A stretch of 64,000 nt of DNA from an uncultured Rikenellaceae bacterium (GCA_963696805.1 CAVOLF010000006.1:167023-231022), one strand, 5' to 3'; counted from the stretch's first letter, positions 13,084 through 40,205 are shown. Notes: generated by a model from the sequence alone, not told the origin. A program made the numbers and translations.

Positions 13084-13929
13084 TCACCGCCCAAGCATCT
13101 GTGTGATATAGCTCTCAGCCAGGGTGGTCTTGTCAAATCCCAGTCCGCTGACAACAATAAGCCTGCTACCCTGCCTGGCCATGTGAAGCACCCCGTTGAA
13201 ACCGTCTTCAAACGCGTATTTGAAGACCTCATCTCCAGGCATGAAGGAATCACCGGCCAGTTTTGAAGCCATTGCGTCTGCCTCATCACCGTCAATGCAG
13301 CGGAAAAGGTAAATTTCAAACCTCTCTTCACCGACCTCATACGATGCCCTGAAGGCGTTCCTGAGATACTCATGCCCCAGTACACTTTCAAGCAGGTAAG
13401 TCTCCTCGTTCGCAAGCCGACCCTCAGTTGGGAACAGGTTTAGCAGCTCCGGGAATTTGCTGGTGCCTTCAATGCGTCCATCGATAAGCCGCGCCAGCTC
13501 CTCCATCCTTCCGCCTGCCTTCCGCGATTTGGAGTGTGTCATTATCTTGATGTAATAACGATCCTTGTAAAAGTGTAAGATTCCCTCCTCGTGATAACCC
13601 TGCACACCCACGGGTATGAATCCGTATCCTGGCGAACGCTCCATGGAATATATTCCAAAAGCCTCGGCGTCATCATCAAACCTGTATATCTCGGCTTTGA
13701 TAACCTCCCTGCCCTTTACGTATTCAGAGATGTTGAGATCAATAAATCCCAGGGCCAGATAGGCATCAGCGGCTCCGTTGATATAGTCCCACAGGTCATC
13801 CGGAGTGTAAACCGGATAGTCACTTACAACCTTGTATCCCTTCAGTTCAGGGAAGAGCTGCTGGCCCGTGAGTGCAAAGGAACAGGCAGCGATCATTGCA
13901 GTTGACAGAATAAGTTTCCTGACAGTCAT
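13084..13929 (-). CDS. hypothetical secreted protein
   Basis: 281-aa ORF with a signal peptide (MTVRKLILSTAMIAACSFALTG). It is tightly linked (12 nt) to the upstream Tat aldo/keto reductase. No motif recognised. Confidence 0.65.
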   Translation of the reverse strand: MTVRKLILSTAMIAACSFALTGQQLFPELKGYKVVSDYPVYTPDDLWDYINGAADAYLALGFIDLNISEYVKGREVIKAEIYRFDDDAEAFGIYSMERSPGYGFIPVGVQGYHEEGILHFYKDRYYIKIMTHSKSRKAGGRMEELARLIDGRIEGTSKFPELLNLFPTEGRLANEETYLLESVLGHEYLRNAFRASYEVGEERFEIYLFRCIDGDEADAMASKLAGDSFMPGDEVFKYAFEDGFNGVLHMARQGSRLIVVSGLGFDKTTLAESYITQMLGR

Positions 13930-15876: not shown

Positions 15877-18800
15877 CTATTCTATTTTGAATCCTACAAC
15901 TAGGATGTCATCTGTCTGGGGGGCCGATCCTATCCAGCTGTCGAGGCGTTCCCTGAGCATCTCCTCCTGCTTGCTCATCGGGTAATTCTGAACGTCAAGT
16001 ATCAGTTTCCTGAAGTTCTTTTTCATGAATTTCTTCCCGGTAACACCGCTGAACTGGTCTGCATAGCCGTCAGTAAAGAGGTAGTATGAGGTATCCTTCT
16101 CCAGGTTCCATTCATATTGCAGGTATTCCTGGCTGGCCCTGGGCTGAACCCCGTCAGGCAGCCTGTCACCGTAAATAACCTCAAGAAGGTACTTGCCGTC
16201 AGCCAGGATGCCTGTGTCATCATCCATTTCAACCATCTTCCATTTTGCTGTCTCTTCATCACTCATCTCCCTCACCCTGTAACACTGGGAGCCGACGCCG
16301 GAGAATTCCACAGAACCACTGTTGCGGTCTATGGCCAGCAGCGCAATGTTGATGGATACCGCCATCGACTCCGGAATGCCATGTTTCTGCTGTGCAGTGA
16401 TCATTTTCCTCTGGAATTCACTGATGATGACAGAGGTCTTCAATGTTACCTGCCTGTTGCCTATCTCTTCCAGGAACGATAGTCCCATGAGGGTCGCCAG
16501 CGCTGAATTCACTCCATGACCGGTGCAATCACCAACCGCAATGAAAAACTTATCCCCTTTTCGTGTCATCCAGTAGAAATCACCACTCACCCGGTCTTTC
16601 GGTCTGTTGATTATAAAACTGTTGCGAAGGGCATCAATCAGGATCTTTTCGGAGGGCATGAGCGCCCGCTGCACATACCCGGCATACTGCACGAGGGCGG
16701 CAATCTCTTCCCTGGCTTTGCCGGCAGCTTCCGAACGCTGCTTCATCAGACTCTCAAGTCGCTGGTTCCTGACTTTAAGCATTCCGGCAAAATACCTTAC
16801 TACGTATAATATCAAACCAGCAGCCGCCATGATGTATAGTACCAGTGCAACCATGGATGTGTACCACGGCTTCCGGACCGAAAAGGAATAGGTTGTTTCC
16901 TCACTTTCGAGTCCCGTGATGGTCTTTGCCTTCAGCCTGAAGGTATAGTCTCCTGCAGGAAGGTTCGTATAATCCCTGTAAGTGCGCTTCTCCCACCTTG
17001 ACCAGTCGTCATCGAGCCCATCCAGCCTGTGACGGTATTCGGTCTTGGCCTCGCCCACATAGGAGGTGGTTGTCCACCTTAGGGAAATACTGTTCCTGCT
17101 GTGGCGAAGTGATACATCAGGAGTGCCGGGTTGAATGGCTGACGGAATTCTGCTCCCCCCAGAAGAGAGACTGTAAAAGGAGCCATCCATAAGCGCAGTG
17201 GCATTGCCGGAGGTAATGCGGGTAAAGAAAGTACTGAAGGTGCCATAGCTGAAACCAAGCTTCGATTTGTCAATGATAAAAATACTCCGCCCCTTGGTTA
17301 TCCATATATTCCCGTCGATATATGAAATGCCTGTAGTGGCAATGTCGGGAAGAAAATCGAACTGTCTCCTGAATACCACATGGCCCTGACTCGTTGTGGA
17401 CACCAGGGCGTCAAAATTCCGGGTATCAAACCCTGTCAGGAATATATCGCCATCAGGTGTTTTAAAAAGATTACTTATAAGTATATTGTCAAAGGTGTTT
17501 CCAATCAGGTCATGATCCTTTTCGAAAATGTCACTCTCAACGTTATATCGCCAGATGCCCCTTCCGGAGCAGACATAGAGCCTGCCATTGATGGTGAAGA
17601 TATTGTTCAGGGTGTCACAGTCAATACCCCGTTTTTTATCATACCGGATGAATGCCGTGTCCGTTGCATCACATTGCATGCGCATGAGTGATGATGGCAA
17701 AGATGTAAGTATCCACCACTCTTTCCCTCCCGTATGTTCTATCTCATGCACCCTGCCTTTCAGTTCCCCCCTGCCGCATGTGTTGATTACTTTCCACTCC
17801 TCACTGGCATACTTAATGGTTCTTAACATCCCGTCATCCGCTCCGGCAAGCAATACAGTAGAATCATTTACGGCTGATCTGATGGCTGTCAGATGTACTC
17901 TGCTAAGAACATGAGTGACATAGCCGTCATTGTCAGTCTGCCAGAGTCCGTCGGAGGCAGCTGCCATCAGAACATTTCCTTCCGGCAGGTGTGTGCTGAG
18001 GATATCATAGATCATTGCAGCAGGTTCCTCCATCTTTCTGAACCGGACAACCCCGGAATTGTCAACCTTTCTTTTATACAGACCATGTTCAGTGCTTACG
18101 AAGACAGAGTCTTCAAGCGCCGTTACGCCGGAAATGATTGATCCTATTCCGGATGCGCTTCCAAACTCGTACGCCGGAAGTGAAATATATGCCCTGTTGA
18201 TGAAGCCTCTTGTGCAGAACCATAGCTGGGAGCTTGAGGCATAATCACAATACATCGATGTCACCGAGGACTCCCTTATTGAGGTGGTCTCGTCAGAGAT
18301 ATGCTGCAACAGCCTGCCCTCATGGTTGAAGATCAGGACACCTCCCCTTTCTGACAATCCGGCTGCTATATTCCCGCCTGGCAGTAGGGCTACAGCTGTC
18401 AGAGGACCTTTTCTCAGCCTGTTGTTGTCAGCCCTGCTCAGAAACTGTGTATTAAGCACTCCGGATCTGTGGTTGAACAACACCAGGCCTCCCTCCTCAG
18501 AAGCAACCAGGATGTTATCATTATCGTACCGCAGAAGCCCTGCAAAACTTACCATCCTGATCTTTTCTCCTCCAGGCAGCCTGAATATCTGGCCCTCCCT
18601 GTACTCAAAGAGCCCCTCCCTGTCATCTGCCAGAATAGGCCTGGCATTGATGATCAGCATCCTGCCGACATTCTTCAGGCCATATTCCCGTTCCATGTCT
18701 GTTACTGAAACGGAATCTGTGGCGATGTCCAGGAGATAAAGCCTCCTGCCGTCGCTGAAGAATACCGTGTTGCTGTCAGAAGCTATTGATAATATTGGCC

Positions 18801-19194
18801 CGATTTCGCTTCTGTACGTCGAATCAGCTATCCTGCCTGCAAGAGAATTGTATGTCAGCCTTCCGGCCGGGTCAGGCTGGAGGAACCCAAAGTCAGTATC
18901 ACCCCCCGCGAAAACCACTCCCCTGTGATCTGTTGCCAGGGCCCCAACTCTCTGAGGCGTTAGCATGGGTATCAACCCCCAGAGAGTCCCGTCATAGGTT
19001 ACAATGCCTGAAGACTCGTTGCCGAAATACATCACCCCACGCTTATCCATCGTGATACACAGGTTGATGAGATCACCGGGGGTCTCGGCGGCGTCAGACC
19101 AGCTGATCATGGGCGTACCCAACCTGTTGATCTGCGAACTCGCTGTTAAATAACTGACTAACAGGAATACAATAAGCGGAAGACCCTTCTTCAT
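15877..19194 (-). CDS. membrane sensor: periplasmic beta-propeller (Reg_prop) repeats + Y_Y_Y domain + TM helix + cytoplasmic PP2C/SpoIIE serine phosphatase
   Basis: 1105 aa with a signal peptide. Y_Y_Y motif TEYRHRLDGLDDDWSRWEKRTYRDYTNLPAGDYTFRLKAK. TM segment WYTSMVALVLYIMAAAGLILYVV. SpoIIE motifs SGDFYWMTRKGDKFFIAVGDCTGHGVNSA and YLFTDGYADQF. Confidence 0.85.
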   Translation of the reverse strand: MKKGLPLIVFLLVSYLTASSQINRLGTPMISWSDAAETPGDLINLCITMDKRGVMYFGNESSGIVTYDGTLWGLIPMLTPQRVGALATDHRGVVFAGGDTDFGFLQPDPAGRLTYNSLAGRIADSTYRSEIGPILSIASDSNTVFFSDGRRLYLLDIATDSVSVTDMEREYGLKNVGRMLIINARPILADDREGLFEYREGQIFRLPGGEKIRMVSFAGLLRYDNDNILVASEEGGLVLFNHRSGVLNTQFLSRADNNRLRKGPLTAVALLPGGNIAAGLSERGGVLIFNHEGRLLQHISDETTSIRESSVTSMYCDYASSSQLWFCTRGFINRAYISLPAYEFGSASGIGSIISGVTALEDSVFVSTEHGLYKRKVDNSGVVRFRKMEEPAAMIYDILSTHLPEGNVLMAAASDGLWQTDNDGYVTHVLSRVHLTAIRSAVNDSTVLLAGADDGMLRTIKYASEEWKVINTCGRGELKGRVHEIEHTGGKEWWILTSLPSSLMRMQCDATDTAFIRYDKKRGIDCDTLNNIFTINGRLYVCSGRGIWRYNVESDIFEKDHDLIGNTFDNILISNLFKTPDGDIFLTGFDTRNFDALVSTTSQGHVVFRRQFDFLPDIATTGISYIDGNIWITKGRSIFIIDKSKLGFSYGTFSTFFTRITSGNATALMDGSFYSLSSGGSRIPSAIQPGTPDVSLRHSRNSISLRWTTTSYVGEAKTEYRHRLDGLDDDWSRWEKRTYRDYTNLPAGDYTFRLKAKTITGLESEETTYSFSVRKPWYTSMVALVLYIMAAAGLILYVVRYFAGMLKVRNQRLESLMKQRSEAAGKAREEIAALVQYAGYVQRALMPSEKILIDALRNSFIINRPKDRVSGDFYWMTRKGDKFFIAVGDCTGHGVNSALATLMGLSFLEEIGNRQVTLKTSVIISEFQRKMITAQQKHGIPESMAVSINIALLAIDRNSGSVEFSGVGSQCYRVREMSDEETAKWKMVEMDDDTGILADGKYLLEVIYGDRLPDGVQPRASQEYLQYEWNLEKDTSYYLFTDGYADQFSGVTGKKFMKKNFRKLILDVQNYPMSKQEEMLRERLDSWIGSAPQTDDILVVGFKIE

Positions 19195-19317: not shown

Positions 19318-22300
19318 ATGAGGGTAACTTACAGAGTGATCGTCCTGTCGACAGCATTGTTAATGCTGTTTAGCAGGCCCGATGCAAAGGCTCAGGCTTT
19401 TAACGGGAGTGCTGTCGGCGAAAGCGCCGCGGAAAGATCGTCACGTCCGGCTGCAACCCGCTCCTACCACGCTGAAGAACCCCAATTCAGGAAAATCACA
19501 GACCCCTCCGGCAAATATGTACGGATGCTTATCCCCGGTCATCATCACACCTCTGAGACAGGTATGCCGGAGCTGCCGGTTTACAGTCAGCTGGTGGAGG
19601 TGCCTGAAGGCATGGAGGTTAAAGTGTCACTTTCCGGCATCTCATCACGGAGGATCAGGTTAACCGTACAGGGAGCAGGTGACGCCGAACTTTTTCCCGC
19701 CCAGCCGGCCAGAACAAAGAACGAAATCCAGGATGAGAAGGTTACTTTCAAAGATAGAAAGGCCTATGGGACACGAGGAGTCATCACTCATGATACGGTC
19801 GTGATCAGGTACGAGGGTATCCACAGAGGACGAAGGCTGGCCAGCATCGCGGTCTACCCCGCATTCTACGATCCGAAGGGCGGATATGTAGACCTTATCA
19901 CATCCATGGAGATGGATATTCGTTTTGAACCTTCTCCGGTGAAGGGAGACGAGGAGGAATCGGTAAAGAGCGAGAAGGGAGGGTATGCTTCCGACGCATA
20001 TGTACCCGGCTATTCCGACAAGCCGGTACAGATGATTATTGTTACAGATTCTGCCTTCACAAGGCACCTTGCCCCCCTTGTCAGATGGAAATTGCTCAAG
20101 GGAATACTCACCACTGTGATCTCCAAGAAAACCGGTCCTCCAGACTCAGTATACCATGACCTGAAAAGGAGGATCTCCGAAGTCTGGTTCAACTCGCTTG
20201 ATTCGGACAATCCGGTTCAATATCTTCTCATAGTTGGTGATCCGGCAATTATTCCGACAGCCAAGGTGACAACGAATGTTTCAGACCTCTATTATGGTGA
20301 GTTTGATGGCGAGGGTGATTATATACCGGAGCTTTTCATCGGACGGCTTCCCGTATCCGATACAACCCAGCTGAAGGGAATGGTAAAGAAGATCATTGAC
20401 TACGAGACCTGGAATTATGGTCCGTCAAATGATTTCTGGGCAGGTGCCGTGACCACGGCGGGCAATGCACCCGGATTTGAGCTTTACATGAATGGACAGG
20501 TTAAATACATTTACGATAATTACCTTGGCAAGGACACCTCTCTGAAAGCGGTAAGATGGCTTTACCCGGAAGCACAGCTGAAGGATGACTCGCTGAAGAC
20601 ACTTTTCAACAAGGGGCTTGCCATCCTTAACTACACCGGGCACGGTGAGGCAGCCGGGTTCAGTGACCCTCAGTTCAGGGCATCAATGGTCAGCGACCTG
20701 ACCAACGTGAATGAATATCCTTTGATAATAGCCAATGCATGCCGTACTGCTCAGATAAGTGTCACGCCATGTTTCGCTACGTCGATGATGAACGCAACAG
20801 GCAAGGGTGCAATCGGTTATATTGGATGCACAAATGACTCATACTGGGTTGATGACTTCTTCTGGGCTGTTGGTCCAGGCACCCCGGGATTGGACGTGAC
20901 ATATGAGACATCCGGGAAAGGTGCCTTCGACAGACTCTTCCACACTCACGAAGAGCCACCCGGTGAATGGTACCACACGATGGGTCAGATAAACTTCTCC
21001 GGGAATTTGTCGGTCTCTGCCAGCACGAGTCCCCGCAAGAGATACTACTGGGAAACATATATTCTGCTAGGTGACCCGTCACTGTCTCCGGTTATTGGAA
21101 GGCCAGAGCCATTTGACGTGGATATTCCCCGTACCATACCCCAGGAGCTCACTTCACTCAGCTTCTTTGCAGATCCCTTTTCATACGCCGCGCTCTCTGA
21201 CTTTGACAATCTCTGGGATGCCAAATTCATCAGCCCTTCAGGAAATATTTCTCTTGCCATACCTCCCGGGGTGAAAGACTCATGCCTGCTTGTGATAACA
21301 GGCCAGAACAAGCTGCCATTTATCAAGACGGTCTACTTCGGTACGGTCCCAGGTGCATTTCTCACGGTTGAGAATACTGTTCTTGATGATTTTGCAGGAA
21401 ACCGCAACGGTATCCCTGAGTATGGGGAGGTTATCAGGCTCATTGTGACCTTAAAAAACTTAGGCCAGAGTGCATCACAACAGATTCAGGCAGCGATCTC
21501 GGCAACCTCTGGCATGATAACCGTCGAATCGGGAACAGCATCAGTAGGAACACTTCTCCCGGGAGCATCTTTCACAATCACGGGAAATTTCATATTCAGT
21601 GTTTCCGATCAGGTGGAGGACGGGGAACTTGCTTCCCTCCTGCTGACCCTGACGGACAACAGCAAGCAGTATAAATTCGGCATCGACATGACCCTTCATG
21701 CTCCGCAGCTGGAGATACTCTCCTCCGTGCATGATGATTTAAATTCAGGCAACGCGAACTTCCTGCCTGATCCGGGAGAAAAGATAAATCTCATCGTGAA
21801 GGTCAAAAACGTGGGGTCATCGGCTGCCAGTGGCCAGGTAACAGTCACTCCTTCAGGTCCATGGCTGACATTACAGGAACCTGAGCTGCCGACCGGTGTC
21901 ATTGAGCCGGGAAAAGAAAAGTCGGTAAACTTCGAGGCGCTTATCTCTGATCTTGCTTTGTCAGGAACAGTTATCCCGTACAATGTCAGGTTCGTCTGCG
22001 GACATTATGAAGCAGAGGGCGCATGGTCGATAAGCACGGGGAAGACCCGTGAAACGTGGGAGTTCAACAGGTTTGACATCTTCCCGTGGATACAGAGGCC
22101 TGAATACCCGTGGACCATAACATCATCTTCATCTTATGAGAACGTTCTCTCAGCAAGGTCAGGGATCATTCCTGACAAGAGTGAGACAGTATTGTCAATC
22201 TATGTAAACAATCCTGTTGCCGACACAATCTCCTTCTATTCACGCACCTCCTCGGAACCGATCTATGATGAGTTAATCTTCAAAATTGACAGTGTGGTTG

Positions 22301-23064
22301 ACATGAGTATCTCAGGAGACACCCCCTGGGCTCTCAGGAAGAAGTTACTCAAGCCTGGCGTGCATCTGCTTGAATGGATCTACAAAAAGGATGTATCCCT
22401 GTCAGGAGGGCTTGACGCCGCATGGATTGACATGATCACCTTCCCTGATATATCATTCCTTGAGGCTGACCTGCACATAGATACAGTCTACCCGCCTCCC
22501 CCTTCGGCAGTGCTGAATGATGTGATCATAACCGGACGCGTGATCAATTTCGGCAGGAACGCCCTTACTAGCTTCCCGCTGGCATACCGCATCAATGAAG
22601 GGGAACTGGTCAATGAGACCTTCTTCAGAAAAATCGATCCGGGCGACACGTTAGAGGTTGCATTCACTCAGAAATGCAACCTGCTGCCGGATGTAGGCTA
22701 TAAGATATACATATTCAACCGCCTGCCTGAAGATGGTTATGCAGGAAATGATACTGCCTTTGTCTCATTCATAAAATCCGGAACCGGACCTGAGATCAGC
22801 GAGGAATCGGTAAGGGTCCTCCCCAACCCGTTCAGTGAAAGCTTTGTACTTGAACTCGATTTTGACGGTGAAGAGAATACAACCGTTGAAATTATCGACT
22901 CCGGAGGAAGGGTTGTGCTGAGAAGAGCACCTGGGCTGGTACCCGGCAGAAACCGTATCCCGTTCGATTGCCGTCACCTTGCCTCAGGCGTCTACACGCT
23001 AAGGATCAAGCAGGGAGGGAGGAGTATCGCGCTGAAGGTGGTTAAAACCCAGGCAGTATATTAA
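19318..23064 (+). CDS. C25-family (gingipain-type) cysteine peptidase with T9SS C-terminal sorting domain
   Basis: 1248 aa. Propeptide-like MPELPVYSQLVEVPEG. C25 core LLIVGDPAIIPTAK...SDLYYGEFDG...FIGRLPV, with catalytic-type NYTGHGEA and IANACRTAQ. The C-terminus VRVLPNPFSESFVLELDF...LASGVYTLRIKQ is a Por secretion tail. Confidence 0.85.
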   Translation: MRVTYRVIVLSTALLMLFSRPDAKAQAFNGSAVGESAAERSSRPAATRSYHAEEPQFRKITDPSGKYVRMLIPGHHHTSETGMPELPVYSQLVEVPEGMEVKVSLSGISSRRIRLTVQGAGDAELFPAQPARTKNEIQDEKVTFKDRKAYGTRGVITHDTVVIRYEGIHRGRRLASIAVYPAFYDPKGGYVDLITSMEMDIRFEPSPVKGDEEESVKSEKGGYASDAYVPGYSDKPVQMIIVTDSAFTRHLAPLVRWKLLKGILTTVISKKTGPPDSVYHDLKRRISEVWFNSLDSDNPVQYLLIVGDPAIIPTAKVTTNVSDLYYGEFDGEGDYIPELFIGRLPVSDTTQLKGMVKKIIDYETWNYGPSNDFWAGAVTTAGNAPGFELYMNGQVKYIYDNYLGKDTSLKAVRWLYPEAQLKDDSLKTLFNKGLAILNYTGHGEAAGFSDPQFRASMVSDLTNVNEYPLIIANACRTAQISVTPCFATSMMNATGKGAIGYIGCTNDSYWVDDFFWAVGPGTPGLDVTYETSGKGAFDRLFHTHEEPPGEWYHTMGQINFSGNLSVSASTSPRKRYYWETYILLGDPSLSPVIGRPEPFDVDIPRTIPQELTSLSFFADPFSYAALSDFDNLWDAKFISPSGNISLAIPPGVKDSCLLVITGQNKLPFIKTVYFGTVPGAFLTVENTVLDDFAGNRNGIPEYGEVIRLIVTLKNLGQSASQQIQAAISATSGMITVESGTASVGTLLPGASFTITGNFIFSVSDQVEDGELASLLLTLTDNSKQYKFGIDMTLHAPQLEILSSVHDDLNSGNANFLPDPGEKINLIVKVKNVGSSAASGQVTVTPSGPWLTLQEPELPTGVIEPGKEKSVNFEALISDLALSGTVIPYNVRFVCGHYEAEGAWSISTGKTRETWEFNRFDIFPWIQRPEYPWTITSSSSYENVLSARSGIIPDKSETVLSIYVNNPVADTISFYSRTSSEPIYDELIFKIDSVVDMSISGDTPWALRKKLLKPGVHLLEWIYKKDVSLSGGLDAAWIDMITFPDISFLEADLHIDTVYPPPPSAVLNDVIITGRVINFGRNALTSFPLAYRINEGELVNETFFRKIDPGDTLEVAFTQKCNLLPDVGYKIYIFNRLPEDGYAGNDTAFVSFIKSGTGPEISEESVRVLPNPFSESFVLELDFDGEENTTVEIIDSGGRVVLRRAPGLVPGRNRIPFDCRHLASGVYTLRIKQGGRSIALKVVKTQAVY

Positions 23065-23870: not shown

Positions 23871-24617
23871 TTACAGTTCGCGTATCTGTATATTTCTGAA
23901 CCATACATCATCACCATGGTCCTGCAGGACTATGTATCCTTCTGAAGCGATATTTGCCCAGTCAGGATTTTCCGCTGGCCATTTGCTATCCTGGATAAGT
24001 GCGTTAAACTCCGGTGTCCACAGATGATACTCAAGGACGGTCTCTCCGTTCTGGATATGCCATACAGAACCTTTATATACCTTTATCTCAGCAGTGTTCC
24101 ATTCACCGGCCGGCTTGGCATTCTGAGGAACTGCAGGTATCAGGTCATAAAGTGACCCTGCCTTGCGGTTGCCGTCCTTGCCGGCTTCAGCATCAGGGTG
24201 ACGCTCATTATCCAGGATCTGCATTTCAGGTCCGGTTTTCCATGGTTCCGACCACTCAGGGGCTTCCTGGACAAGGTACATGATACCGCTGTTGCCACCT
24301 TCAGAAATCTTCCATTCAAGCTTCAGGTGAAAATTTGAATATTTCTTGTCGTAGATGATATCGTCGCCACTGCCACCTGCCTCGCCCCTGCCTGAGCCTA
24401 TGCAATGAAGTGTGCCGTCAACAATCTCCCATCCCTGCTCGGGGAAGGTTGGCATGTTGTAGTTACGCCAGCCCTGTGTGGTGGAGCCGTCAAAGAGGAA
24501 GGTCCAGACTTCAGCCTGCGTCGATTTCTTTTCAGCATTCTTTTTCTCCTTGCCTGTACCGCATGAGACAAAGGAAGCTGCAAGAACAAGTACTAACATC
24601 AATTTAAGTATTTTCAT
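23871..24617 (-). CDS. DUF1080 (3-keto-disaccharide hydrolase-like) lipoprotein
   Basis: Lipobox LAASFVSC, then GWRNYN...GWEIVDGTLHC...GNSGIMYLV...EMQILDN...AGSLYDLIP...GYIVLQDHGDDVWFRNIQIREL, typical of the DUF1080 jelly-roll family. Confidence 0.85.
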   Translation of the reverse strand: MKILKLMLVLVLAASFVSCGTGKEKKNAEKKSTQAEVWTFLFDGSTTQGWRNYNMPTFPEQGWEIVDGTLHCIGSGRGEAGGSGDDIIYDKKYSNFHLKLEWKISEGGNSGIMYLVQEAPEWSEPWKTGPEMQILDNERHPDAEAGKDGNRKAGSLYDLIPAVPQNAKPAGEWNTAEIKVYKGSVWHIQNGETVLEYHLWTPEFNALIQDSKWPAENPDWANIASEGYIVLQDHGDDVWFRNIQIREL

Positions 24618-24697
24618 AAGTAACAGGTTTTAAATATTTGATTTACATTTATTTAAGTTAAACGGATATCTCCGGATGCGACTGTCAGCCACGGCAG

Positions 24698-26182
24698 TTA
24701 TGCCGGCATCTCAGGTAGCGACCAGCCGTTACGGTAGTTATGCTTGATCATCTCTTCTGCAAACTGCTTCACATTGATCGGGTCGGTATATTTCCGGTTG
24801 AATGTCGGGTGACCGTCAGTAATGCTGAAATGATCCTCAAGGCATATCTTGATCGTTTCGGTGTCATTGATATTGGTGAACTGCATCTTTTCACCGTTCC
24901 ATTCCAGGGTTTTGTTGAGACCCTGCAGCCTTACTGCAAGCACGCCCATCACCACCATTTCATTGAAGGGGCCTGCTTCAGAGAAGTCTGACTTGGTCAT
25001 CACCCTTGTGTCTGCAGGTTCCTTGCAAGCGCGTACCCAGTCCATCTCATGGCTGACGGTCACACGGCGCTCAGTCTTCGGTGATACAGGTACGCGGCCT
25101 GATAGCAGCCATGGGTCGCGACCATAACATCCGCATATGAGAGTGTCCTTGCTTCCGTGGAAGATGCAACCGCCATCGGGATCATATGCTTTTCCTGCAG
25201 GCCAACCCTCGGGTTTCATTGGCAGTATGCCGCCGTCAGTCCATGTAACCTCAACCTCCGGATATTTTACTTTTGAACCTTTAGGCGTTGGTCTCTCTGG
25301 GAACACAAGCTTGACTGACTGGGCGTTGGGCGCGCAATCGGTAAGAAGCAATGTTGAGTTTCCCTCGGCTTTGGTCGGGTAATTAAGCTTCAGACCCTTG
25401 AATACGGGGTGTAGGATATGGCACGCCATATCTCCAAGGGCTCCGGTACCGAAGTCCCACCACCCTCTCCAGTTCCAGGGTGTGTAGATGCTGTGGAACG
25501 GACGCATCGGTGCCGGGCCGATAAAGAGATCCCAGTTGAGGGTATCGGGAACCCACTCCCCCTTTGCAGGCCTGTTGAGTCCCTGTGGCCATATAGGCCT
25601 GTCAGTGAAAGTCTCTACCTTCCTGACCTCACCTATCTCTCCGCTCTGAATCCACTCGATAATCTGGTTTACCCCCTCACCTGAAGAGCCCTGGTTGCCC
25701 ATAGAGGTAGCAACCTTATGCTTTGCGGCAAGCTTTGTAAGCAGACGCGATTCATATACGCTGTGCGTAAGTGGCTTCTGAAGGTAGACATGCTTGCCCA
25801 TAGTCATAGCATGAGCGGCCGTAAGGGCATGTGTGTGGTCTGCCGTGGCTATGACGACGGCATCGATAGACTTGCCCATCTCATCGTACATCTTCCTGTA
25901 ATCCCAGTACTTGGCTGCAGCAGGATAGGCATCAAAAACCCTCTTGGAGTAACCCCAGTCAACATCGCAGAGAGCAACGATATTTTCCGATGAAGCGACA
26001 TTGCGGATATTGGTTGCACCAACCCCGCCTATGCCTATGCCGGCAATATTCAGCTTATCGCTGGGTGCACGATAGCCAAGACCGCTGACGACACTGCTCG
26101 GAAGGATTGTAAGACCGGCAATTGCAGCACCGGTAGTGCCGACAAATGACCGTCGTGTGATTTGTTTTGTTTCGTCTTTCAT
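24698..26182 (-). CDS. Tat-exported Gfo/Idh/MocA-family NAD(P)-dependent oxidoreductase
   Basis: Twin-arginine signal ITRRSFVGTTGAAIAGLTIL. Rossmann motif NIAGIGIGGVG and EKPL-type motif YLQKPL. Confidence 0.9.
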   Translation of the reverse strand: MKDETKQITRRSFVGTTGAAIAGLTILPSSVVSGLGYRAPSDKLNIAGIGIGGVGATNIRNVASSENIVALCDVDWGYSKRVFDAYPAAAKYWDYRKMYDEMGKSIDAVVIATADHTHALTAAHAMTMGKHVYLQKPLTHSVYESRLLTKLAAKHKVATSMGNQGSSGEGVNQIIEWIQSGEIGEVRKVETFTDRPIWPQGLNRPAKGEWVPDTLNWDLFIGPAPMRPFHSIYTPWNWRGWWDFGTGALGDMACHILHPVFKGLKLNYPTKAEGNSTLLLTDCAPNAQSVKLVFPERPTPKGSKVKYPEVEVTWTDGGILPMKPEGWPAGKAYDPDGGCIFHGSKDTLICGCYGRDPWLLSGRVPVSPKTERRVTVSHEMDWVRACKEPADTRVMTKSDFSEAGPFNEMVVMGVLAVRLQGLNKTLEWNGEKMQFTNINDTETIKICLEDHFSITDGHPTFNRKYTDPINVKQFAEEMIKHNYRNGWSLPEMPA

Positions 26183-26312
26183 TGTACAGGTGGTTTAAGT
26201 TCAATACAAACCCTAAAAGTAAATAATTCAGCCGTAAAATAAAACCGGGAAATGATTTTTAAATCCCGTCAGCTTTCCTCAGAAAACAGTAAATTGCATT
26301 AAAGGAACAGGT

Positions 26313-26798
26313 ATGACTGATAAGCATTTTAGCATTGAACTGCATGAAAATACAAGGGTGGGGAAGAGTCTCAGGATACTTCTTGGGGTGGTCTGTCTCA
26401 TCGTGACCGTATGGTTTATTTTCAGTGTCAAAGGGACAGCAGCTTCGGTGGGAACCGCCTGGATTGCAATGGGTTTCCTCCTCCTCTTCGGCATGTGGCT
26501 GATAGGCTCGGGGCTTGGATTAACGGAGAGATACATCACGATAGGACATGACAGAATAGTGCTAAGGCAGGATTTCTACAGGCCACCATCGGTCTTCACC
26601 TCCTCTTCACTTACGGCTGTTGGGTTCAAACCTGTTGTCATTGATTTTTACGCTGATAATAAAAATGTAAGACTCAGGCTCGGGACTTACTATCCTGACC
26701 GGACTGCTGCAATAATGGAAGCTGTTGAGGAGTTTTGTGTACTTCACGGTATTGAGATAAAGAGAGATAACCAGGAGGGCAGGGAGGAAAAATCATGA
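26313..26798 (+). CDS. hypothetical membrane protein (2 TM helices + soluble domain)
   Basis: 161-aa ORF. Its stop overlaps the downstream oxidoreductase start (ATGA at 26795-26798), which suggests translational coupling. Confidence 0.6.
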   Translation: MTDKHFSIELHENTRVGKSLRILLGVVCLIVTVWFIFSVKGTAASVGTAWIAMGFLLLFGMWLIGSGLGLTERYITIGHDRIVLRQDFYRPPSVFTSSSLTAVGFKPVVIDFYADNKNVRLRLGTYYPDRTAAIMEAVEEFCVLHGIEIKRDNQEGREEKS

Positions 26799-27943
26799 GA
26801 CTGAGGATGGGAATGATCGGTGGTGGTACGGGCTCTATGATAGGGCCGGTCCACAGGATGGCTGCACGCCTTGACGGCCTTTCGGAACTGGTGTGCGGTG
26901 CCTTCAGCAGCGATCCGGCAGTGTCATCAGCCACGGGAGAGAGAGAGTGCCTTGACAGATCACGCGTTTATGAGACATGGCAGGAGATGATCACCATTGA
27001 AAAAACGCTGCCAGCGGACATCCGGCCTCACTTTATCTCCATTGTCACTCCCAACTACCTGCATTACGGTCAGTCTAAAATGGCCCTCGAAGCAGGATTC
27101 CATGTTATATGCGATAAGCCTCTGTGCATGAGCGTGGTGGAAGCCATTGACCTTCATAAGACGGTGGAGCGCACCGGAAAGCTGTTCTGCCTGACACACA
27201 ACTACACTGGTTATCCCATGGTCAAGCGAGCCAGGGAGATGGTCCTAGGGGGAGAAATAGGTACTGTCAGGAAGGTGGCAGTGGAATATTTCCAGGGATG
27301 GCTTTCATCACCGGTTGAGACTACAGGCAACAGGCAGGCCGAATGGAGGTCAGACCCCGCCAGGGCAGGTATAGCAGGAGCAATGGCAGATATCGGCACC
27401 CACGCATTCAACCTTGCAGAATATGTATCAGGACTCGAGGTGAAAGCAGTGTCAGCCGATCTGCATTCAGTGGTTCCCGGACGGCGCCTCGATGATGACG
27501 GGAACATCATTCTTCATTTTGGCAACGGAGTATCCGGCACACTCCTCGCCAGCCAGATAGCCACAGGAGAGGAGAACAACCTGTCAATAAGGGTCTACGG
27601 TGACCTGGGAGGCATCTCCTGGCGACAGATGGAGCCGAATACCCTGATGGTCCTATGGCCCGACAAGCCGCCACAGATGCTTCGTGCCGGTACCTCCTTC
27701 ACGGGTTCTGGCGTAGCTGCTCCGATGCATACAAGAATCCCGGCAGGCCATCCGGAAGGATTCATAGAAGCTTTTGCCAACCTGTACAGGAACTTTGCGC
27801 ACAGTATCATTGCACGCATGGAAGACAGAAGCAATGATGTCATGGCAGACTACCCCGGCATTTATGAGGGCGTCAGGGGAATGAAATTCCTGGAAGCCGT
27901 AGTTGCCTCAGGACGGAGCAACTCGGTCAGAATCTCTGTCTGA
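26795..27943 (+). CDS. Gfo/Idh/MocA-family oxidoreductase (cytoplasmic, no signal)
   Basis: 382 aa. N-terminal Rossmann motif MGMIGGGTGSMIGPVH and CDKPL motif. Confidence 0.9.
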   Translation: MRLRMGMIGGGTGSMIGPVHRMAARLDGLSELVCGAFSSDPAVSSATGERECLDRSRVYETWQEMITIEKTLPADIRPHFISIVTPNYLHYGQSKMALEAGFHVICDKPLCMSVVEAIDLHKTVERTGKLFCLTHNYTGYPMVKRAREMVLGGEIGTVRKVAVEYFQGWLSSPVETTGNRQAEWRSDPARAGIAGAMADIGTHAFNLAEYVSGLEVKAVSADLHSVVPGRRLDDDGNIILHFGNGVSGTLLASQIATGEENNLSIRVYGDLGGISWRQMEPNTLMVLWPDKPPQMLRAGTSFTGSGVAAPMHTRIPAGHPEGFIEAFANLYRNFAHSIIARMEDRSNDVMADYPGIYEGVRGMKFLEAVVASGRSNSVRISV

Positions 27944-27987
27944 GGTTATTTAAGGAGCTTATTCAGGTAATACCTGCGCGGCTTAGA

Positions 27988-28839
27988 TTATTTAAGGAGC
28001 TTATCCAGATAATAGCTGCGGCTGATCGCAATGCTTTCCATCGGAGTGTGTGTACGGCAGTAATCCTGCTCCAGGAACCAGTAATTCATGCCCGCCGTTT
28101 TGGCTTCAGCCAGGATGGGTTTGAAATCGATGATCCCTTCTCCCAGGGTTGCATCCAGCTTTTCAGGAGTAAGGTCCTTCATATGCCATACCCCGAAACG
28201 GCCCGGGTATTTCCTGAAGTATGTGACAGGATCCTTGCCGGCAGCAGTGATCCAGGCAATGTCAAGCTCAAAGGTGACCAGTTTTGGGTCTGTATTCTCA
28301 AGCAGCAGATCATAGGGAACCCTTCCATTTATCTCCTTAAATTCAATCTGGTGGTTGTGAAAGCCGAAGGTAATGCCGGCCTTTTTGCACTTCTCCCCTG
28401 CCTTGTTGAAGAAATCAGCGGCCCTCTGATATCCGTCCAGGCTGCTGCTCCAGTCTTCCGGAAGGGAGGGAAGCATTATGTACTTCATTCCAGCCTCCGC
28501 GGCATCTTCTATCATTTGTTCATGGTTTTCAGGCCTGATGTGGCTGTGTGAGCTCACCGCTTCCATTCCTGCCTTCTTCACCAGCTTGCCGAACTCCTTT
28601 GGTGAAAGGCCGTAAAACTTCCTGTCACTGTGGTCCGCCGCCTCAACCCAGTTATACCCTATAGCCGCAGCTTCAGCAAGGGCCGATGAAGGGTCCTCGC
28701 CCATCAGATCACGGATTGTGTACAGAGCCAGACCTGTCTTTTTTGCCGGCCAGGCCGATCCAAACATATCAGTCTTAAGTAGTGGCATGGCGGCAGCTAC
28801 CAGGGCTGATCTCCTGAGGAAGTCTCTTCTGTTTGTCAT
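27988..28839 (-). CDS. Tat-exported sugar phosphate isomerase/epimerase (xylose-isomerase-like TIM barrel)
   Basis: Twin-arginine signal MTNRRDFLRRSALVAAAMPLL. The body resembles AP_endonuc_2 TIM-barrel proteins (FGFHNHQIEF, VWHMKD). Confidence 0.85.
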   Translation of the reverse strand: MTNRRDFLRRSALVAAAMPLLKTDMFGSAWPAKKTGLALYTIRDLMGEDPSSALAEAAAIGYNWVEAADHSDRKFYGLSPKEFGKLVKKAGMEAVSSHSHIRPENHEQMIEDAAEAGMKYIMLPSLPEDWSSSLDGYQRAADFFNKAGEKCKKAGITFGFHNHQIEFKEINGRVPYDLLLENTDPKLVTFELDIAWITAAGKDPVTYFRKYPGRFGVWHMKDLTPEKLDATLGEGIIDFKPILAEAKTAGMNYWFLEQDYCRTHTPMESIAISRSYYLDKLLK

Positions 28840-28947: not shown

Positions 28948-29946
28948 ATGAAGCTTTGGGAAAAACATGAAAATGATGACAAGCTGAAATGTCTTCTCTG
29001 CCCCCATTCGTGCCTGATATCCCCGGGCGGAAGAGGAGTGTGCGGCGTGAGAGAGAATCGTGGCGGTGAAGTGTTGCCGGTCACATATGGTGTCATTTCA
29101 GGCTTTGCCCTCGACCCGATAGAGAAGAAACCGCTGTATCATTTCTTCCCGGGCAGTTCCATATTGTCAGTGGGATCATATGGATGCAACCTTAAATGCG
29201 ACTTTTGCCAGAATTTCCACATTTCACAAGATGTTCACCCCGGCAGTTCACGGCATATGTCACCGGAGGAGCTTGTCAGACAGGCCCTAACGGCTCCGGG
29301 TAACAGCGGCCTGGCCTACACCTACAATGAACCGGTGATCTGGTTTGAATATGTCAATGACTGTGCAAGCCTGGCAGCTGCTGAGGGTCTTCATAACGTG
29401 ATGGTCACCAACGGGTACGTTAACGGTGATCCGCTTGCTGAACTGATCAAGGTCATTGATGCATTCAACATCGACCTGAAAGCCTTCAGCAATGAATTTT
29501 ACAGACGGTACGCTGGAGCCACGCTCGGACCCGTGCTGGAGGCTATAAAAATGGTTGCATCCTCAGGAAGGCATCTCGAGATAACAACCCTCATCATCCC
29601 GGGCCTGAACGACTCGGAAGATGAGATAAGGCGGGAAGCTGAATGGATTGCGTTGAACGCCGGCAGACGCGTGCCCCTGCACCTGAGCCGTTATTTCCCC
29701 ATGTACAGGAGGAGCAGCCCTCCCACCCCTGCGGAAACAATACTGAGACTGAAAGAGATCGCGAATGAATATCTTGATTTTGTTTATACAGGTAACCTGG
29801 CGGGAACAGAATCGGGCAGCGACACCCTGTGCCCGTCATGTCACTCTGTGATTGTAAGCAGAGCGGGTTATAATACTACGGTGACGGGCCTCTCGGACGA
29901 CGGCCGGTGTATGAATTGCAATGCGGAAATAATGAGATGGGTGTAA
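28948..29946 (+). CDS. amrS: AmmeMemoRadiSam-system radical SAM enzyme (PFL-activase-like)
   Basis: N-terminal Cys cluster CLLCPHSCLISPGGRGVCGVR. Radical-SAM CX3CX2C motif (GCNLKCDFCQN). Length and layout match the family. Confidence 0.8.
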   Translation: MKLWEKHENDDKLKCLLCPHSCLISPGGRGVCGVRENRGGEVLPVTYGVISGFALDPIEKKPLYHFFPGSSILSVGSYGCNLKCDFCQNFHISQDVHPGSSRHMSPEELVRQALTAPGNSGLAYTYNEPVIWFEYVNDCASLAAAEGLHNVMVTNGYVNGDPLAELIKVIDAFNIDLKAFSNEFYRRYAGATLGPVLEAIKMVASSGRHLEITTLIIPGLNDSEDEIRREAEWIALNAGRRVPLHLSRYFPMYRRSSPPTPAETILRLKEIANEYLDFVYTGNLAGTESGSDTLCPSCHSVIVSRAGYNTTVTGLSDDGRCMNCNAEIMRWV

Positions 29947-34859: not shown

Positions 34860-36912
34860 TCAATTAACCGGGAGAAATGAATATCTCTTCCCGTATTCCA
34901 TCATCTGCCCCAGGTAGTCAGAGCAATATTCAATCTTCACATCGATGATTTTTCCCGCTGCATCTGTTACCGTTGTCATCGAGGGATTTACGAATCCGCT
35001 GTAGGGGGCAATATCCAGCTTCGCGTACCGGGCCAGTATCTCACGGTGCAGATCCTGATCGATCTTCACCCCGTAATTTTCAATCAGATCTTTTCCAGCC
35101 ACGAAATCACCTTCCGACTTGATGCGCTGAACCTCTTTCAGCATCACGCCAAACAGCATCCGTAGCTTTTCGTAGTCAGTGATCGTCACATAGGTCTGGT
35201 CATCACTTTCCACCAGTCATGACATTGTCAGGTGCGCCCTTTTGATATACCCAGTGAGATATTGCCGAACGGCAGCGCATGTGGGCCTGTTCAATGTCCT
35301 TTCCGGGTGTTATCCGGACGATCTGCGTAAGTAGTCCGTTGCGGATGTAATTGTCATACTGTGCTTTTGCCGGTTTCAGAAGGGATCAGTCCAATTTCGG
35401 TCAGTTTGGGGTCCATCAGGAAATAAAGTGCGAAGAGATCTGCTCTCATCTCCTCAAGGGGAGAGGAGTAGTTCTTGAGGGCATTCGGATCAGTTCCCGG
35501 AGCCAGTTTGCCGCTGGCATGGCCAATGCATTCGTGAAGGTCGGTATGAAGAGCATCAGCGAGTGATCCGTGTTGTAGCCCGTTTTATCTCAGCCTCGTC
35601 AAAGGCAAATTCCTCCAGGAAGCCGCTGCCACGTGCCATATGTCCTTTGCATCGGTTATGTTTGCAAGGGTGACTGACTTCGACCCGGTTTCCGTCCTTA
35701 TCCAGTTGGAATTCGGAAGGTTTATCCCCAGCGGAGAGGCCGGATAACAGTCACCGCCGAGCATCGCCACGTTAATGACGCTGGCAGCAACGCCGGTGAC
35801 CTTCTCCTTGCGGTATTGCGGGGCAACAGGTGAGTTGTCCTCGAACCACTGCGCATTAGCGGTGATCAGTGCAGTGCGCTTTGATGCCTCAATGTCCTTG
35901 TAATCGACCACTGACTCCCAGGTGGCCTTCATGCCCAGCGGGTCACCGTAAGTCTCGATAAATCCATTGATATAGTCAACGGAGAGGTCAGTATTGCCTG
36001 CCCACACTACGTTGTACTCATCCCAGGTCTTCAGGTCACCTGTCTTGTAGTAGTCAATGAGCAGCCCAAGCTCGCTTCTTCTGGGTCTCGCTCAGCGCCA
36101 CTTCACGAGCCTTCTCAAGGTATGTGATGATGCGGTCGATGGCCTCTCCATAGAGCCCTCCGCTCCGGTAAGGTATCTCGGTCACCTTCCCGTCGACCTT
36201 AACCACCTTGGTGTTCAGTCCCCATGATACAGGGGTCGTGTCAGCTGGATCGGCCAGGGACCCGTAATAGTTTTCGACTTCCGCCTGGGTAACCCCCTCG
36301 TAGAAGTTGTTGGCCGAGGAGACGATCATGTCAGCTCCCTCTGTCTGATCAACGCCTTCTGGAGTATAGCTCCGGGTCAAAGAGCACCGGAGTTAGCATC
36401 GCAGTGAGATCATCGGCCGTCTCTTCCTCCCTGAGAGGAAGGAGCCCCGGGTCGGTATCGCTGACCAGGGCCGCAAAATAATCCCGTGAAAATCCCGGAA
36501 CGAACTTGTCACCGGAATAATGATGGTGTATGCCGTTGGCAAAGAAGACCCTTTTGGCATAGGTGATGAATGATTGATACTCTTCCGCCTCCCTGTCGCC
36601 GCCGTATGAGGCGATTATGGCCTCGATGGTCTTCCGTATGACAAGGTTATACCTGAAATTCTGGTCCCACAGTATGTCACGCCCGCAGAGGGCGGCCTCG
36701 GAGAGATAGTATATGAACTCCTTCTCACCTGCCGACAGCTGTTCAAACCCCGGCAGGCGATACCTGAGCACGCTGATATCTTCAAATCTGTCAACCTCAT
36801 ATGTAAATTCTTCATTCACGGCAGCCTTCCTGCCTGATTCCCCGCATGATGTAAAGAGTGCTATTCCCATAGACGCAAATGTGACTATTAATAAGATTTT
36901 CCTCATGACCAT
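34860..36912 (-). pseudogene. M49 dipeptidyl-peptidase III lipoprotein, broken by at least 6 frameshifts
   Basis: DPP3-like sequence runs through five listed ORFs or frames plus unlisted frames. N-terminus has lipobox LFTSC. The zinc motifs HECIGHASGK and EEMRADLFALY are intact at about 35440-35535. Frame changes lie near 36365, 36065, 35635, 35575, 35378 and 35220. The total span of 2053 nt equals a full-length gene. Confidence 0.8.
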
Positions 36913-37039: not shown

Positions 37040-38370
37040 ATGAATAAATTCTTCTTTTCTGCTCTTCTGCGCTGCTTCTGTGCATCTCAGTGCTCCTCTG
37101 CAGGCCAGGATCTCAACCTTCTTATCAGAAAGGAGGCCACCACCTCTGTTCCTGCCGCTGAGCAAATGTACCGGGAGTTGCATCAGAATCCCGAGCTCTC
37201 ACTTCAGGAATTTAAAACGGCTGAAAAAATGGCCCTGGCTCTTGAAAAAATGGGATTCGATGTAACAAAAGGGGTAGGCGGAAACGGCGTTGTGGGCGTT
37301 TTCCGGAATGGTACAGGGCCTGTGGTGATGCTCAGGACTGACATGGATGCCCTGCCGGTGAGGGAGACCACCGGTGTCTCATGGGCAAGCACGGTCACCG
37401 TAACGACGACCGCGGAATGGAGACACCTGTGATGCACGCATGCGGGCATGATTTTCACATGACCGTCTGGCACGGGACTCTGTCTGCCCTTGTGGCACTC
37501 AGGAGCAGGTGGAAGGGAACGATAATGGCAGTAGCTCAGCCTGCCGAGGAAGTCAGCGGAGGATCGGACCAGATGATCAGAGACGGACTCTACAGCAGAT
37601 TCCCGCTGCCAGACTATGCGTTGTGCTATCATGTCAGCCCTGACCTTCCTGCAGGGACAACAGGGTATTTCCCGGGACCAATTTTTGCCGGGGTCAACTC
37701 GGTAGACATGAAGGTCTACGGAATTGGCGGCCACGGTGCCATGCCACATAAAACAATAGATCCTATTGTCCTTTCAGCCAAGATAATCCTCGACTACCAG
37801 ACAATCGTCAGCCGGGAGATCAATCCGGTCTCCCCGGCAGTGATAACGGTAGGTTCAATCCATGGAGGAACAAAGCATAACATCATCCCGGAGGAGGTGG
37901 AGATGAAACTCACACTGAGGTTCTTCTCCGACGATGTCTACCGGCAGATCAGGCAGGCGGTTGTCCGGATAGCCAACGGCCATGCTTTGGCCGCAGGCCT
38001 GCCGCAGGATAAGTGGCCGGTAATAAGCTTCGGAAAAGATTCCACACCTCCTGTTGAAAATGACGCCGGCCTGGTCAACATGGCTGTAGCATCTATGGAA
38101 AAGGCGCTCGGAAAGGACAATGTTCTGCGGGTGGATCCATGCACCGTGGCGGAGGACTTCGGCAAGTACGGCCGCACGGATGAGAAGGTAAAAATCGCCC
38201 TCTTCTGGCTGGGTGTAGCCAACAGGGAGAAATATGAGAAGAGCATTGCAGAAGGAACCATGCTCCCTGCACTTCACAGCAGCAACTTCCTGCCTGATTT
38301 CGTGCCCGCATATACCACCGGAGTGACCGCTATGAGCCTGACGATGATAGACCTGTTCAACTCGAAATGA
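37040..38370 (+). pseudogene. M20-family amidohydrolase (M20D/hippurate-hydrolase-like) with one frameshift
   Basis: The 130-aa N-terminal ORF (signal; DMDALPV) continues in the -1 frame as NDDRGMETPVMHACGHDFHM (the M20D metal-binding motif). The junction is near 37395-37405. Confidence 0.75.
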
Positions 38371-40130: not shown

Positions 40131-40205
40131 TGTTACAGGGTTAGGTTTGAATTGAATTATGTATGCAATATACAAACTTCCCGCTGATCACCCAGGGCGT
40201 GAAGA

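Follow-up and report, generated by a model that had tools for sequence, protein, structure and literature searches.

A predicted oxidative glycoside-cleavage island in an uncultured Rikenellaceae bacterium and its uncultured Bacteroidales relatives

Gene content and organization of the locus

Within a 64,000-nucleotide stretch of DNA from an uncultured Rikenellaceae bacterium (CAVOLF010000006.1, positions 167023-231022; hereafter the window, with coordinates counted from its first letter), we analyzed five adjacent genes that a sequence-only reading had grouped into one cluster for cleaving glycosides through 3-keto intermediates. All five open reading frames (ORFs) lie at the coordinates given in that reading, and Pfam searches bore out its domain calls. 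On the minus strand are genes for a DUF1080 lipoprotein (23871-24617; 248 amino acids [aa]; PF06439, E 6e-52) and for a Gfo/Idh/MocA protein with a twin-arginine translocation (TAT) signal (24698-26182; 494 aa; PF01408 plus C-terminal Gfo domains), here called TAT-Gfo. On the plus strand follow a protein of 161 aa with two transmembrane helices and no family (26313-26798; the 2TM protein) and a second Gfo/Idh/MocA protein that has no signal peptide (26795-27943; 382 aa; PF01408 plus C-terminal Gfo domains; Gfo2), and a twin-arginine, xylose-isomerase-like TIM barrel is encoded again on the minus strand (27988-28839; 283 aa; PF01261, E 7e-18). The ATGA stop/start overlap reported between the 2TM and Gfo2 genes is real (26795-26798), and the divergent intergenic spacer that separates the TAT-Gfo/DUF1080 operon from the 2TM gene (26183-26312) presumably holds the promoters.

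These five genes are not one operon: both strands are used, and there are three transcription units. TAT-Gfo and DUF1080, the latter 80 bp downstream on the same strand, make up a minus-strand unit, 2TM and Gfo2 make up a plus-strand unit, and the TIM-barrel gene stands alone on the minus strand, convergent with Gfo2. As previously stated, no SusC/SusD pair, classical glycoside hydrolase or regulator is adjacent, and Pfam and NCBIfam scans found none within ~10 kb; a DUF6377/SusR-type regulator domain was likewise absent by Pfam from the ORFs ~10 kb to either side and from the relatives examined. An Rfam search of the window returned no match, and scans for sigma-70 promoters and terminators gave nothing above shuffled-sequence expectation.

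Predicted functions of the four enzyme genes

Our point of comparison was the system that cleaves alpha- and beta-glycosides as well as thioglycosides by way of 3-keto intermediates, namely BT2156-BT2160 in Bacteroides thetaiotaomicron and AL1-AL5 in Alistipes sp., as described by Nasseri et al. (bioRxiv 10.1101/2024.03.25.586180), who build on Liou et al. 2020 and Liu et al. 2021 (PMC8121099). In that system, AL3/BT2158 oxidizes C3 using tightly bound NAD, the TIM barrel AL1/BT2156 eliminates the aglycone from 3-keto-beta-glycosides, the DUF1080 protein AL2/BT2157 both carries out elimination from 3-keto-alpha-glycosides and hydrates 2-hydroxy-3-keto-glucal, and the NADH bound to AL3/BT2158 is probably recycled through 3-keto-glucose reduction (Nasseri et al.). 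The same authors place AL1 in the Sec pathway, AL2 among lipoproteins, AL3 in the TAT pathway and AL4 in the cytosol, and they find AL4/BT4 to be dispensable in vitro. For the window, homology, residue conservation, export signals and gene neighborhoods are what we observed, and all catalytic activities, the substrate range and the direction in which Gfo2 works are predictions drawn from them.

Evaluating the dehydrogenase candidate revealed that TAT-Gfo scores 862 bits with NF058561, the NCBIfam equivalog model for BT_2158_fam glycoside 3-dehydrogenase, which clears the cut-off of 750, and that its best solved relative is PDB 8tdf (737 bits, 69% identity over 456 residues), one of the structure set for the crystallized Alistipes enzyme AL3. 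The AL3 sugar/NAD pocket consists of Q161, R192, W195, D248, H252 and Y349 (Nasseri et al.), and all six residues are identical in TAT-Gfo in a HMMER alignment (Q164, R195, W198, D251, H255 and Y353). Its twin-arginine motif can be read from the sequence as TRRSFVG. These observations support the prediction of a periplasmic NAD-dependent glycoside 3-dehydrogenase, orthologous to BT2158/AL3, that would perform the C3-oxidizing first step. Because all AL3 sugar-binding residues are kept, gluco- and manno-configured glycosides with free 3-OH and 4-OH are predicted as substrates, such that the substrate, previously called open, appears narrower than claimed. An exact-sequence look-up of TAT-Gfo found no record.

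The DUF1080 protein aligned to the BT2157/AL2 structures (PDB 8tda and 3osd) with 232 bits and 54% identity. Seven of eight BT2 residues are unambiguously conserved (E103, N134, E164, Q166, Y190, Q273 and H275), and the eighth, K245, falls at an alignment gap edge from which it can be aligned to K212. The lipobox, also read from the sequence, is ...LAASFVS/C with cleavage before the cysteine. We therefore predict a putative 3-keto-alpha-glucoside 1,2-lyase that doubles as a 2-hydroxy-3-keto-glucal hydratase. The sequence-only reading had called this protein a hydrolase; its place in the pathway stands, and the hydrolase activity gives way to the 1,2-lyase and hydratase activities of the published work (Nasseri et al.).

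For the TIM barrel, the best solved relatives are the AL1/BT2156 lyases (PDB 8tcd, 8tcs and 8tct; 141-145 bits, 36-40% identity), and next among characterized enzymes comes the Agrobacterium O-glycoside beta-eliminase AtOGE (8bvk; 85 bits). The AL1 residues H103, H178, H180, D211, W214 and H237 are conserved as H98, H161, H163, D193, W196 and H219, and E257 is also kept. The twin-arginine motif, NRRDFLRR, scores 19.1 with TIGR01409 against a cut-off of 16.7. We infer a divergent exported homologue of the AL1/BT2156 3-keto-beta-glucoside 1,2-lyase.

Gfo2 opens directly on a Rossmann GGGxGxxIG motif with no signal peptide. It has no match to NF058563 (BT_2159_fam) at E <= 0.01, whereas it aligns over its full length with 'Gfo Oxo' of the A. 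tumefaciens operon (WP_038490970.1, sequence as given in the Bitter et al. 2023 supplement; 372 residues at 46% identity, 274 bits, E 5e-94). That enzyme is reported to reduce 3-keto-D-glucose to glucose with NADH after the action of AtOGE and AtHYD, a result its authors call preliminary (PMC10628242). Invariant columns of the Gfo2 alignment include K108, D199 and H203, within the DKP and DIGTH motifs. The closest solved structures are 3v5n (368 bits), 3dty (237) and 7d5m (215), of which the first two are described as biochemically uncharacterized in the sole citing paper found (PMC5969746); a literature search found no paper describing 7d5m. This clade supplies fold information for Gfo2 and not function.

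To these similarities we add the surroundings of Gfo2 homologues (47-56% identical) in six contexts sampled from annotated plasmids and chromids. Neighboring genes in Hymenobacter volaticus, Pseudoalteromonas shioyasakiensis and Sphingomonas parapaucimobilis encode DUF1080, TIM barrels, a GMC oxidoreductase and gluconate-2-dehydrogenase subunit 3, with cytochrome c and a permease in the first, an MFS transporter in the second, and cytochrome c and an MFS transporter in the third. Deinococcus aquaticus has TIM barrels, a second Gfo, an MFS transporter and GH3, Azospirillum brasilense a TIM barrel, a sugar ABC transporter, xylA and xylB, and Sinorhizobium meliloti a LacI regulator only. By taxonomic group, DUF1080, TIM-barrel and GMC 3-dehydrogenase genes adjoin Gfo2 homologues in Bacteroidota and in the Gamma- and Alphaproteobacteria; in Deinococcota, TIM barrels do. 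From these six contexts the subfamily is a recurrent member of 3-keto-glycoside clusters across several phyla. Gfo2 is best read as a member of the Agrobacterium 'Gfo Oxo'/3v5n subfamily and as a candidate for the NAD(P)H-dependent reduction of 3-keto-glucose. The role originally proposed for a second Gfo enzyme, reducing the keto sugar back, is thereby retained as a prediction, though the enzyme would be of the Agrobacterium type and not, as the failed NF058563 match indicates, of the BT2159 type.

In the mechanism that we propose, the TAT-exported dehydrogenase, carrying tightly bound NAD, would oxidize C3 of a terminal gluco- or manno-configured sugar in the periplasm. The 3-keto group would acidify H2, and the aglycone would be expelled by 1,2-elimination, with the TIM barrel serving beta-linked and DUF1080 alpha-linked substrates. 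DUF1080 would then turn 2-hydroxy-3-keto-glucal into 3-keto-glucose by hydration, and the reduced dehydrogenase would return its hydride to 3-keto-glucose, which would make the periplasmic trio a redox-neutral 'hydrolase'. Gfo2 would act in the cytoplasm as an accessory salvage reductase, using NAD(P)H to turn imported 3-keto-glucose into glucose. The localization signals resemble those of the published system in that DUF1080 is a lipoprotein, the dehydrogenase has a TAT signal and the second Gfo is cytosolic.

The locus in relatives and the 2TM gene

A genome scan seeded with the 2TM protein recovered 27 species, all uncultured Bacteroidales or 'Rikenella(ceae)' metagenome-assembled genomes (MAGs); individual loci are cited below by L-numbers, and the presence or absence of Gfo2 was settled by tblastn. 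The block is collinear in all 27 species, running from C25 peptidase, HD, DUF1080 and TAT-Gfo through 2TM and, where present, Gfo2 to TIM, radical SAM and aminotransferase genes. Gfo2 is absent from six of the 27, in which the DUF1080, TAT-Gfo, TIM and 2TM genes are intact, and a 35-residue Gfo2 remnant in L020 points, for that lineage at least, to a deletion of the gene. Such loss with the periplasmic genes intact fits the published in vitro dispensability of AL4/BT4. The periplasmic trio is the stable core, and the cytoplasmic reductase is an exchangeable part with repeated losses.

Other loci depart further from the window. L039-L041 carry DUF1080, TAT-Gfo and a second DUF1080, followed by the 2TM gene directly before radical SAM, with neither TIM nor Gfo2. 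The second DUF1080 of L039 (7068-7835, minus strand) lies upstream of the dehydrogenase gene and is 28% identical to the first, so that this lineage looks like a natural swap of a second DUF1080 for the TIM-barrel lyase. L043, a distant lineage whose 2TM protein is only 21% identical, keeps TAT-Gfo, 2TM-Gfo2 with a 4-bp overlap, and TIM. In the 18 kb of L047, the C25, HD, 2TM and radical SAM genes are present but all four enzyme genes are missing. On the simplest reading, the 2TM gene belongs to the chromosomal backbone and the enzyme genes are a variable island on both sides of it.

Aligning 21 orthologues of the 26183-26312 spacer revealed conserved blocks, AACCYTAAAAGTAAATA..TTCATC.GTAAAATAAAAC and GTAAATTGCAT, amid variable sequence in 19 species, together with a conserved GTAAATTGC element upstream of the 2TM gene that is present even in L047. 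These blocks are presumably candidate promoters or operator sites. Some relatives have an extra gene, for a protein of 395-396 aa, in the interval separating the dehydrogenase operon from the 2TM gene (L005 8770-9957, L011 6280-7470, L006 and L007). It has weak outer-membrane beta-barrel matches (PF13505, 3e-4) and could be a porin for substrate entry. Frameshifted or truncated island genes also occur among the MAGs, affecting the dehydrogenase in L027 and L033, Gfo2 in L016, L033 and L035, and both DUF1080 and the dehydrogenase in L024; some of these MAGs are long-read assemblies, and real decay is indistinguishable here from sequencing error.

Searches of Pfam, with its bacterial PH families, and of NCBIfam matched the 2TM protein to no family, and lenient Pfam scans of it and its homologues gave only sub-threshold noise from transmembrane segments (DUF7937, Chs7 and similar). 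Few homologues exist; they make up 59 clusters when grouped at 90% identity, and a library of 1.84 billion contains 83 representatives of them at 50% identity. An AlphaFold (AF2) model (pLDDT, the predicted local distance difference test, of 77) has a short N-terminal strand, transmembrane helices at 15-39 and 48-67 and, beyond them, a beta-sandwich closed by a C-terminal helix. The PDB matches listed by Foldseek for this model are to PH, FERM-F3, PTB or Pob3 domains and are weak (best E 4.5e-3). The modeled layout resembles membrane-anchored PH-like domains, in which two N-terminal transmembrane helices precede a PH-like beta-sandwich and C-terminal helix, although the protein differs from described bacterial PH families in having no Pfam sequence match and only these weak Foldseek E-values. 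Because the inter-helix loop is short and positive residues flank the helices, both termini are predicted to be cytoplasmic, and the model suggests a small inner-membrane protein with a cytoplasmic PH-like domain. A role as a cytochrome-type re-oxidant was considered and rejected, as the protein lacks both a CxxCH motif and any invariant histidine.

Relatives that lack Gfo2 and TIM place the 2TM gene directly upstream of a radical SAM gene of the AmmeMemoRadiSam system (L047 9001-10502; L039 8001-9546), and in L047 the called 2TM and radical SAM genes overlap by 4 bp. The window's radical SAM gene lies at 28948-29946 (TIGR04337, 340 bits). There may be a functional link between the 2TM and radical SAM genes.

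Competing explanations and known systems

Taking these lines together, we consider it probable that the four enzyme genes form an island for oxidative non-Koshland glycoside cleavage of the kind encoded by BT2156-BT2159/AL1-AL4, and that the 2TM gene is a resident backbone gene. The oxidative 3-keto reading put forward from sequence is supported by the BT_2158 equivalog match and by DUF1080 and TIM proteins whose best solved homologues are AL/BT enzymes, and the co-localization it called for was found, the families co-occurring in other genomes and phyla. Several observations weigh against our interpretation. The proposed catalytic E272 of AL1 aligns with D259 of the TIM barrel, which is invariant in 28 of 28 clade sequences, and an AL1 loop of ~14 residues is missing, such that with 36-40% identity, loop loss and Asp for Glu272 the reaction or specificity of the TIM barrel may differ from that of AL1. 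In AtOGE the catalytic base was assigned to a histidine (Bitter et al. 2023, PMC10628242). The enzyme genes are spread over three transcription units with no regulator, no 3-keto-glucose transporter gene adjoins the cluster, the evidence for the Agrobacterium Gfo reductase is preliminary in its authors' own words, and two of the six sampled Gfo2 contexts (Azospirillum and S. meliloti) are without DUF1080 and dehydrogenase genes. Finally, the whole 13-kb block is collinear within the clade, its housekeeping flanks included, so that clade-internal synteny alone is no proof of functional linkage.

This last point bears on the possibility that the four enzyme genes are adjacent by inherited order only and do not act together, with TIM and Gfo2 possibly serving another sugar pathway. 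The collinearity of block and flanks in 27 of 27 species, the three transcription units and the dispensability of TIM and of Gfo2 in some lineages would all fit. Even so, we regard chance adjacency as distinctly improbable, because the same families co-occur with different flanks in the BT and AL operons and in the Hymenobacter, Pseudoalteromonas, Sphingomonas and Deinococcus clusters, and because the L047 backbone without enzymes indicates that the enzymes behave as an island and not as backbone. A specialization for C-glycosides (DgpA/DgpBC-like) or levoglucosan (LgdA/B/C-like), as opposed to general O- or S-glycosides, shares the overall chemistry of oxidizing, eliminating, hydrating and reducing, and finds weak matches to DgpA (7xr9, 39 bits) and to a levoglucosan dehydrogenase model (35 and 97 bits). 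That model, NF052479, has a cut-off of 650 bits, the locus has no partner of the DgpB/DgpC type, and the dehydrogenase shares 69% identity and an identical pocket with AL3. As the AL/BT lyases leave 3-keto-C-glycosides uncleaved and levoglucosan is not an AL/BT substrate (Nasseri et al.), this specialization seems very improbable indeed. To inositol or scyllo-inositol catabolism, with IolG-type dehydrogenases and an IolE/IolI-type TIM barrel, we give almost no credence. The 3v5n clade does group with scyllo-inositol/L-glucose dehydrogenase in a PDB-based tree (PMC5969746), and there are weak matches to TIGR04380 (IolG; 62 and 47 bits) and TIGR04379 (IolE; 50 bits). These Iol scores fall far under the curated cut-offs of 355 (IolG) and 290 (IolE), so that best homologues of the Iol type, which the sequence-only reading had singled out as fatal to it, were not found, and the 494-aa protein passes another equivalog model (NF058561). 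Iol enzymes are cytoplasmic, unlike the three window proteins that carry periplasmic export signals. DUF1080 has no role in inositol catabolism, and Pfam scans found no further iol genes within ~10 kb on either side.

A separate question is whether the 2TM protein is a real fifth component, either a membrane tether or adaptor that places Gfo2 or a sensor that replaces the BT2160-type regulator. In its favor, the 4-bp ATGA overlap with Gfo2 recurs in L043 despite the 21% identity of the 2TM proteins there, the gene is divergent from the dehydrogenase operon in 27 of 27 species found, and the soluble domain and both termini are predicted to be cytoplasmic, as is Gfo2. The ubiquity of the 2TM gene among scanned loci is, however, by construction, as the scan was seeded with it, and the gene is intact in the six species where Gfo2 is deleted, is kept in L039 where TIM and Gfo2 are both absent and in L047 where all four enzymes are absent, and in both of these is followed directly by the radical SAM gene. 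More distant homologues adjoin RNase P protein, PTPS or methyltransferase genes, which are unrelated housekeeping contexts, and Pfam scans found no DNA-binding or known sensor domain. Membership is therefore unlikely, and the 2TM gene is probably a regional backbone gene and pathway bystander, with Gfo2 directly behind it and probably co-transcribed from its promoter. The sequence-only grouping of five genes accordingly holds as adjacency, and the 2TM gene, which persists at the same spot in L047 without the four enzymes, should leave the cluster. We think it similarly unlikely that the island is a regulator-less modular variant of the pathway, with a TIM lyase unlike AL1/BT1 in specificity or mechanism and an older 2TM protein recruited as a partner of Gfo2; behind that account lie the invariant Asp that substitutes for the proposed catalytic Glu, the TAT export and the deleted gate loop of the TIM barrel.

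Returning to the island as a relative of the BT/AL system, the pathway itself is already known (characterized 2020-2024), and what is new is its host, an uncultured Bacteroidales clade. Shared with BT/AL are the TAT-exported Gfo/Idh/MocA glycoside 3-dehydrogenase (equivalog, 69% to AL3, same pocket), the DUF1080 lipoprotein (54%), the exported xylose-isomerase-like TIM barrel (36-40%, metal ligands kept) and a cytosolic second Gfo. Unlike BT/AL, the window's second Gfo is a non-orthologous replacement and not of the BT2159/AL4 type, there is no DUF6377/SusR-like regulator (BT2160/AL5) and no single operon, and an unrelated membrane-protein gene sits amid the three units into which the genes are split. 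The TIM barrel differs from AL1 in having a TAT and not a Sec signal, in the lost loop of ~14 residues and in carrying Asp where AL1 has Glu as its proposed catalytic residue. The host also belongs to an uncultured Bacteroidales lineage with relatives from environmental and bioreactor metagenomes, as opposed to cultured gut species.

The A. tumefaciens operon GlycDH-AtOGE-AtHYD-Gfo (Bitter et al. 2023, PMC10628242) resembles the island in its Gfo (46% to Gfo2), in AtOGE, to which the TIM barrel is homologous, and in its logic of oxidizing, eliminating, hydrating and reducing. Oxidation in that operon, however, falls to an FAD dehydrogenase of the GMC type, accompanied by a TAT hitch-hiker subunit, where the window has an NAD-Gfo enzyme, and hydration there is by a second TIM barrel (~350 aa) where the window has DUF1080. 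LacABC/GMC-type 3-ketoglycoside clusters with DUF1080, known from Caulobacter and Pedobacter (Price et al. 2022, PMC9007349), and the Hymenobacter, Pseudoalteromonas and Sphingomonas clusters share with the window DUF1080, TIM barrels and a Gfo2-type enzyme (49-56% to the window's). The periplasmic oxidant of LacABC/GMC-type clusters is a GMC flavoprotein with a small subunit and sometimes cytochrome c, and they add an inner-membrane transporter and a ~350-aa TIM barrel next to Gfo, neither of which the window has.

Our findings on the island do not overturn current knowledge; they would add an uncultured Bacteroidales clade, numbering at least 27 species, to the cultured gut Bacteroides and Alistipes in which oxidative glycoside cleavage was recently described. 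The metagenome samples that contain relatives from this clade appear to be environmental or from bioreactors and not from gut. Our findings also point to natural modularity, with an Agrobacterium-type reductase here, a BT2159-type one in Bacteroides, and TIM apparently replaced by a second DUF1080 in one lineage. This supports published work that treats the modules as exchangeable and the periplasmic cycle as redox-neutral by itself. For Gfo enzymes of the 3v5n type, labeled only generically as Gfo/Idh/MocA in the records seen, a role as 3-keto-sugar reductases in this pathway can be proposed in several phyla.

Other genes of the window were noted alongside. Some 10 kb downstream of the cluster, a GH109-like protein of 502 aa (38667-40175, minus strand) combines PF21252 (3e-42) with a Gfo/Idh/MocA N-terminal domain and a TAT signal (PF10518); it would be another NAD-dependent, non-Koshland glycosidase, and a homologue also lies near the locus in L040. 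On the other side, 13942-15129 (minus strand) encodes an aldo/keto reductase (PF00248) with the twin-arginine N-terminus MMKRRNFLMSG and a C-terminal 4Fe-4S dicluster domain, which looks like an exported Fe-S-containing aldo/keto reductase, and the next gene, 13084-13929 (minus strand), is for a DUF6599 protein. The M49 peptidase at 34860-36912 (minus strand) is broken into ORFs of 117, 140, 108 and 187 aa, as compared with intact versions of 681-684 aa in L001, L003, L005 and L047, and the M20 peptidase at 37040-38370 (plus strand) is split into 130 + 329 aa versus 432-444 aa in relatives; these breaks are frameshifts, from either pseudogenization or assembly errors. Upstream, 15877-19194 (minus strand) encodes a protein of 1105 aa, whose L001 orthologue of the same length and position has Y_Y_Y and SpoIIE (PP2C) domains, making the orthologue a sensor-phosphatase, and 19318-23064 (plus strand) encodes a C25 peptidase of 1248 aa, an orthologue of which carries a T9SS (type IX secretion system) Por_Secre_tail domain. 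The 1105-aa protein and the C25 peptidase flank the island in every relative examined with enough upstream contig.

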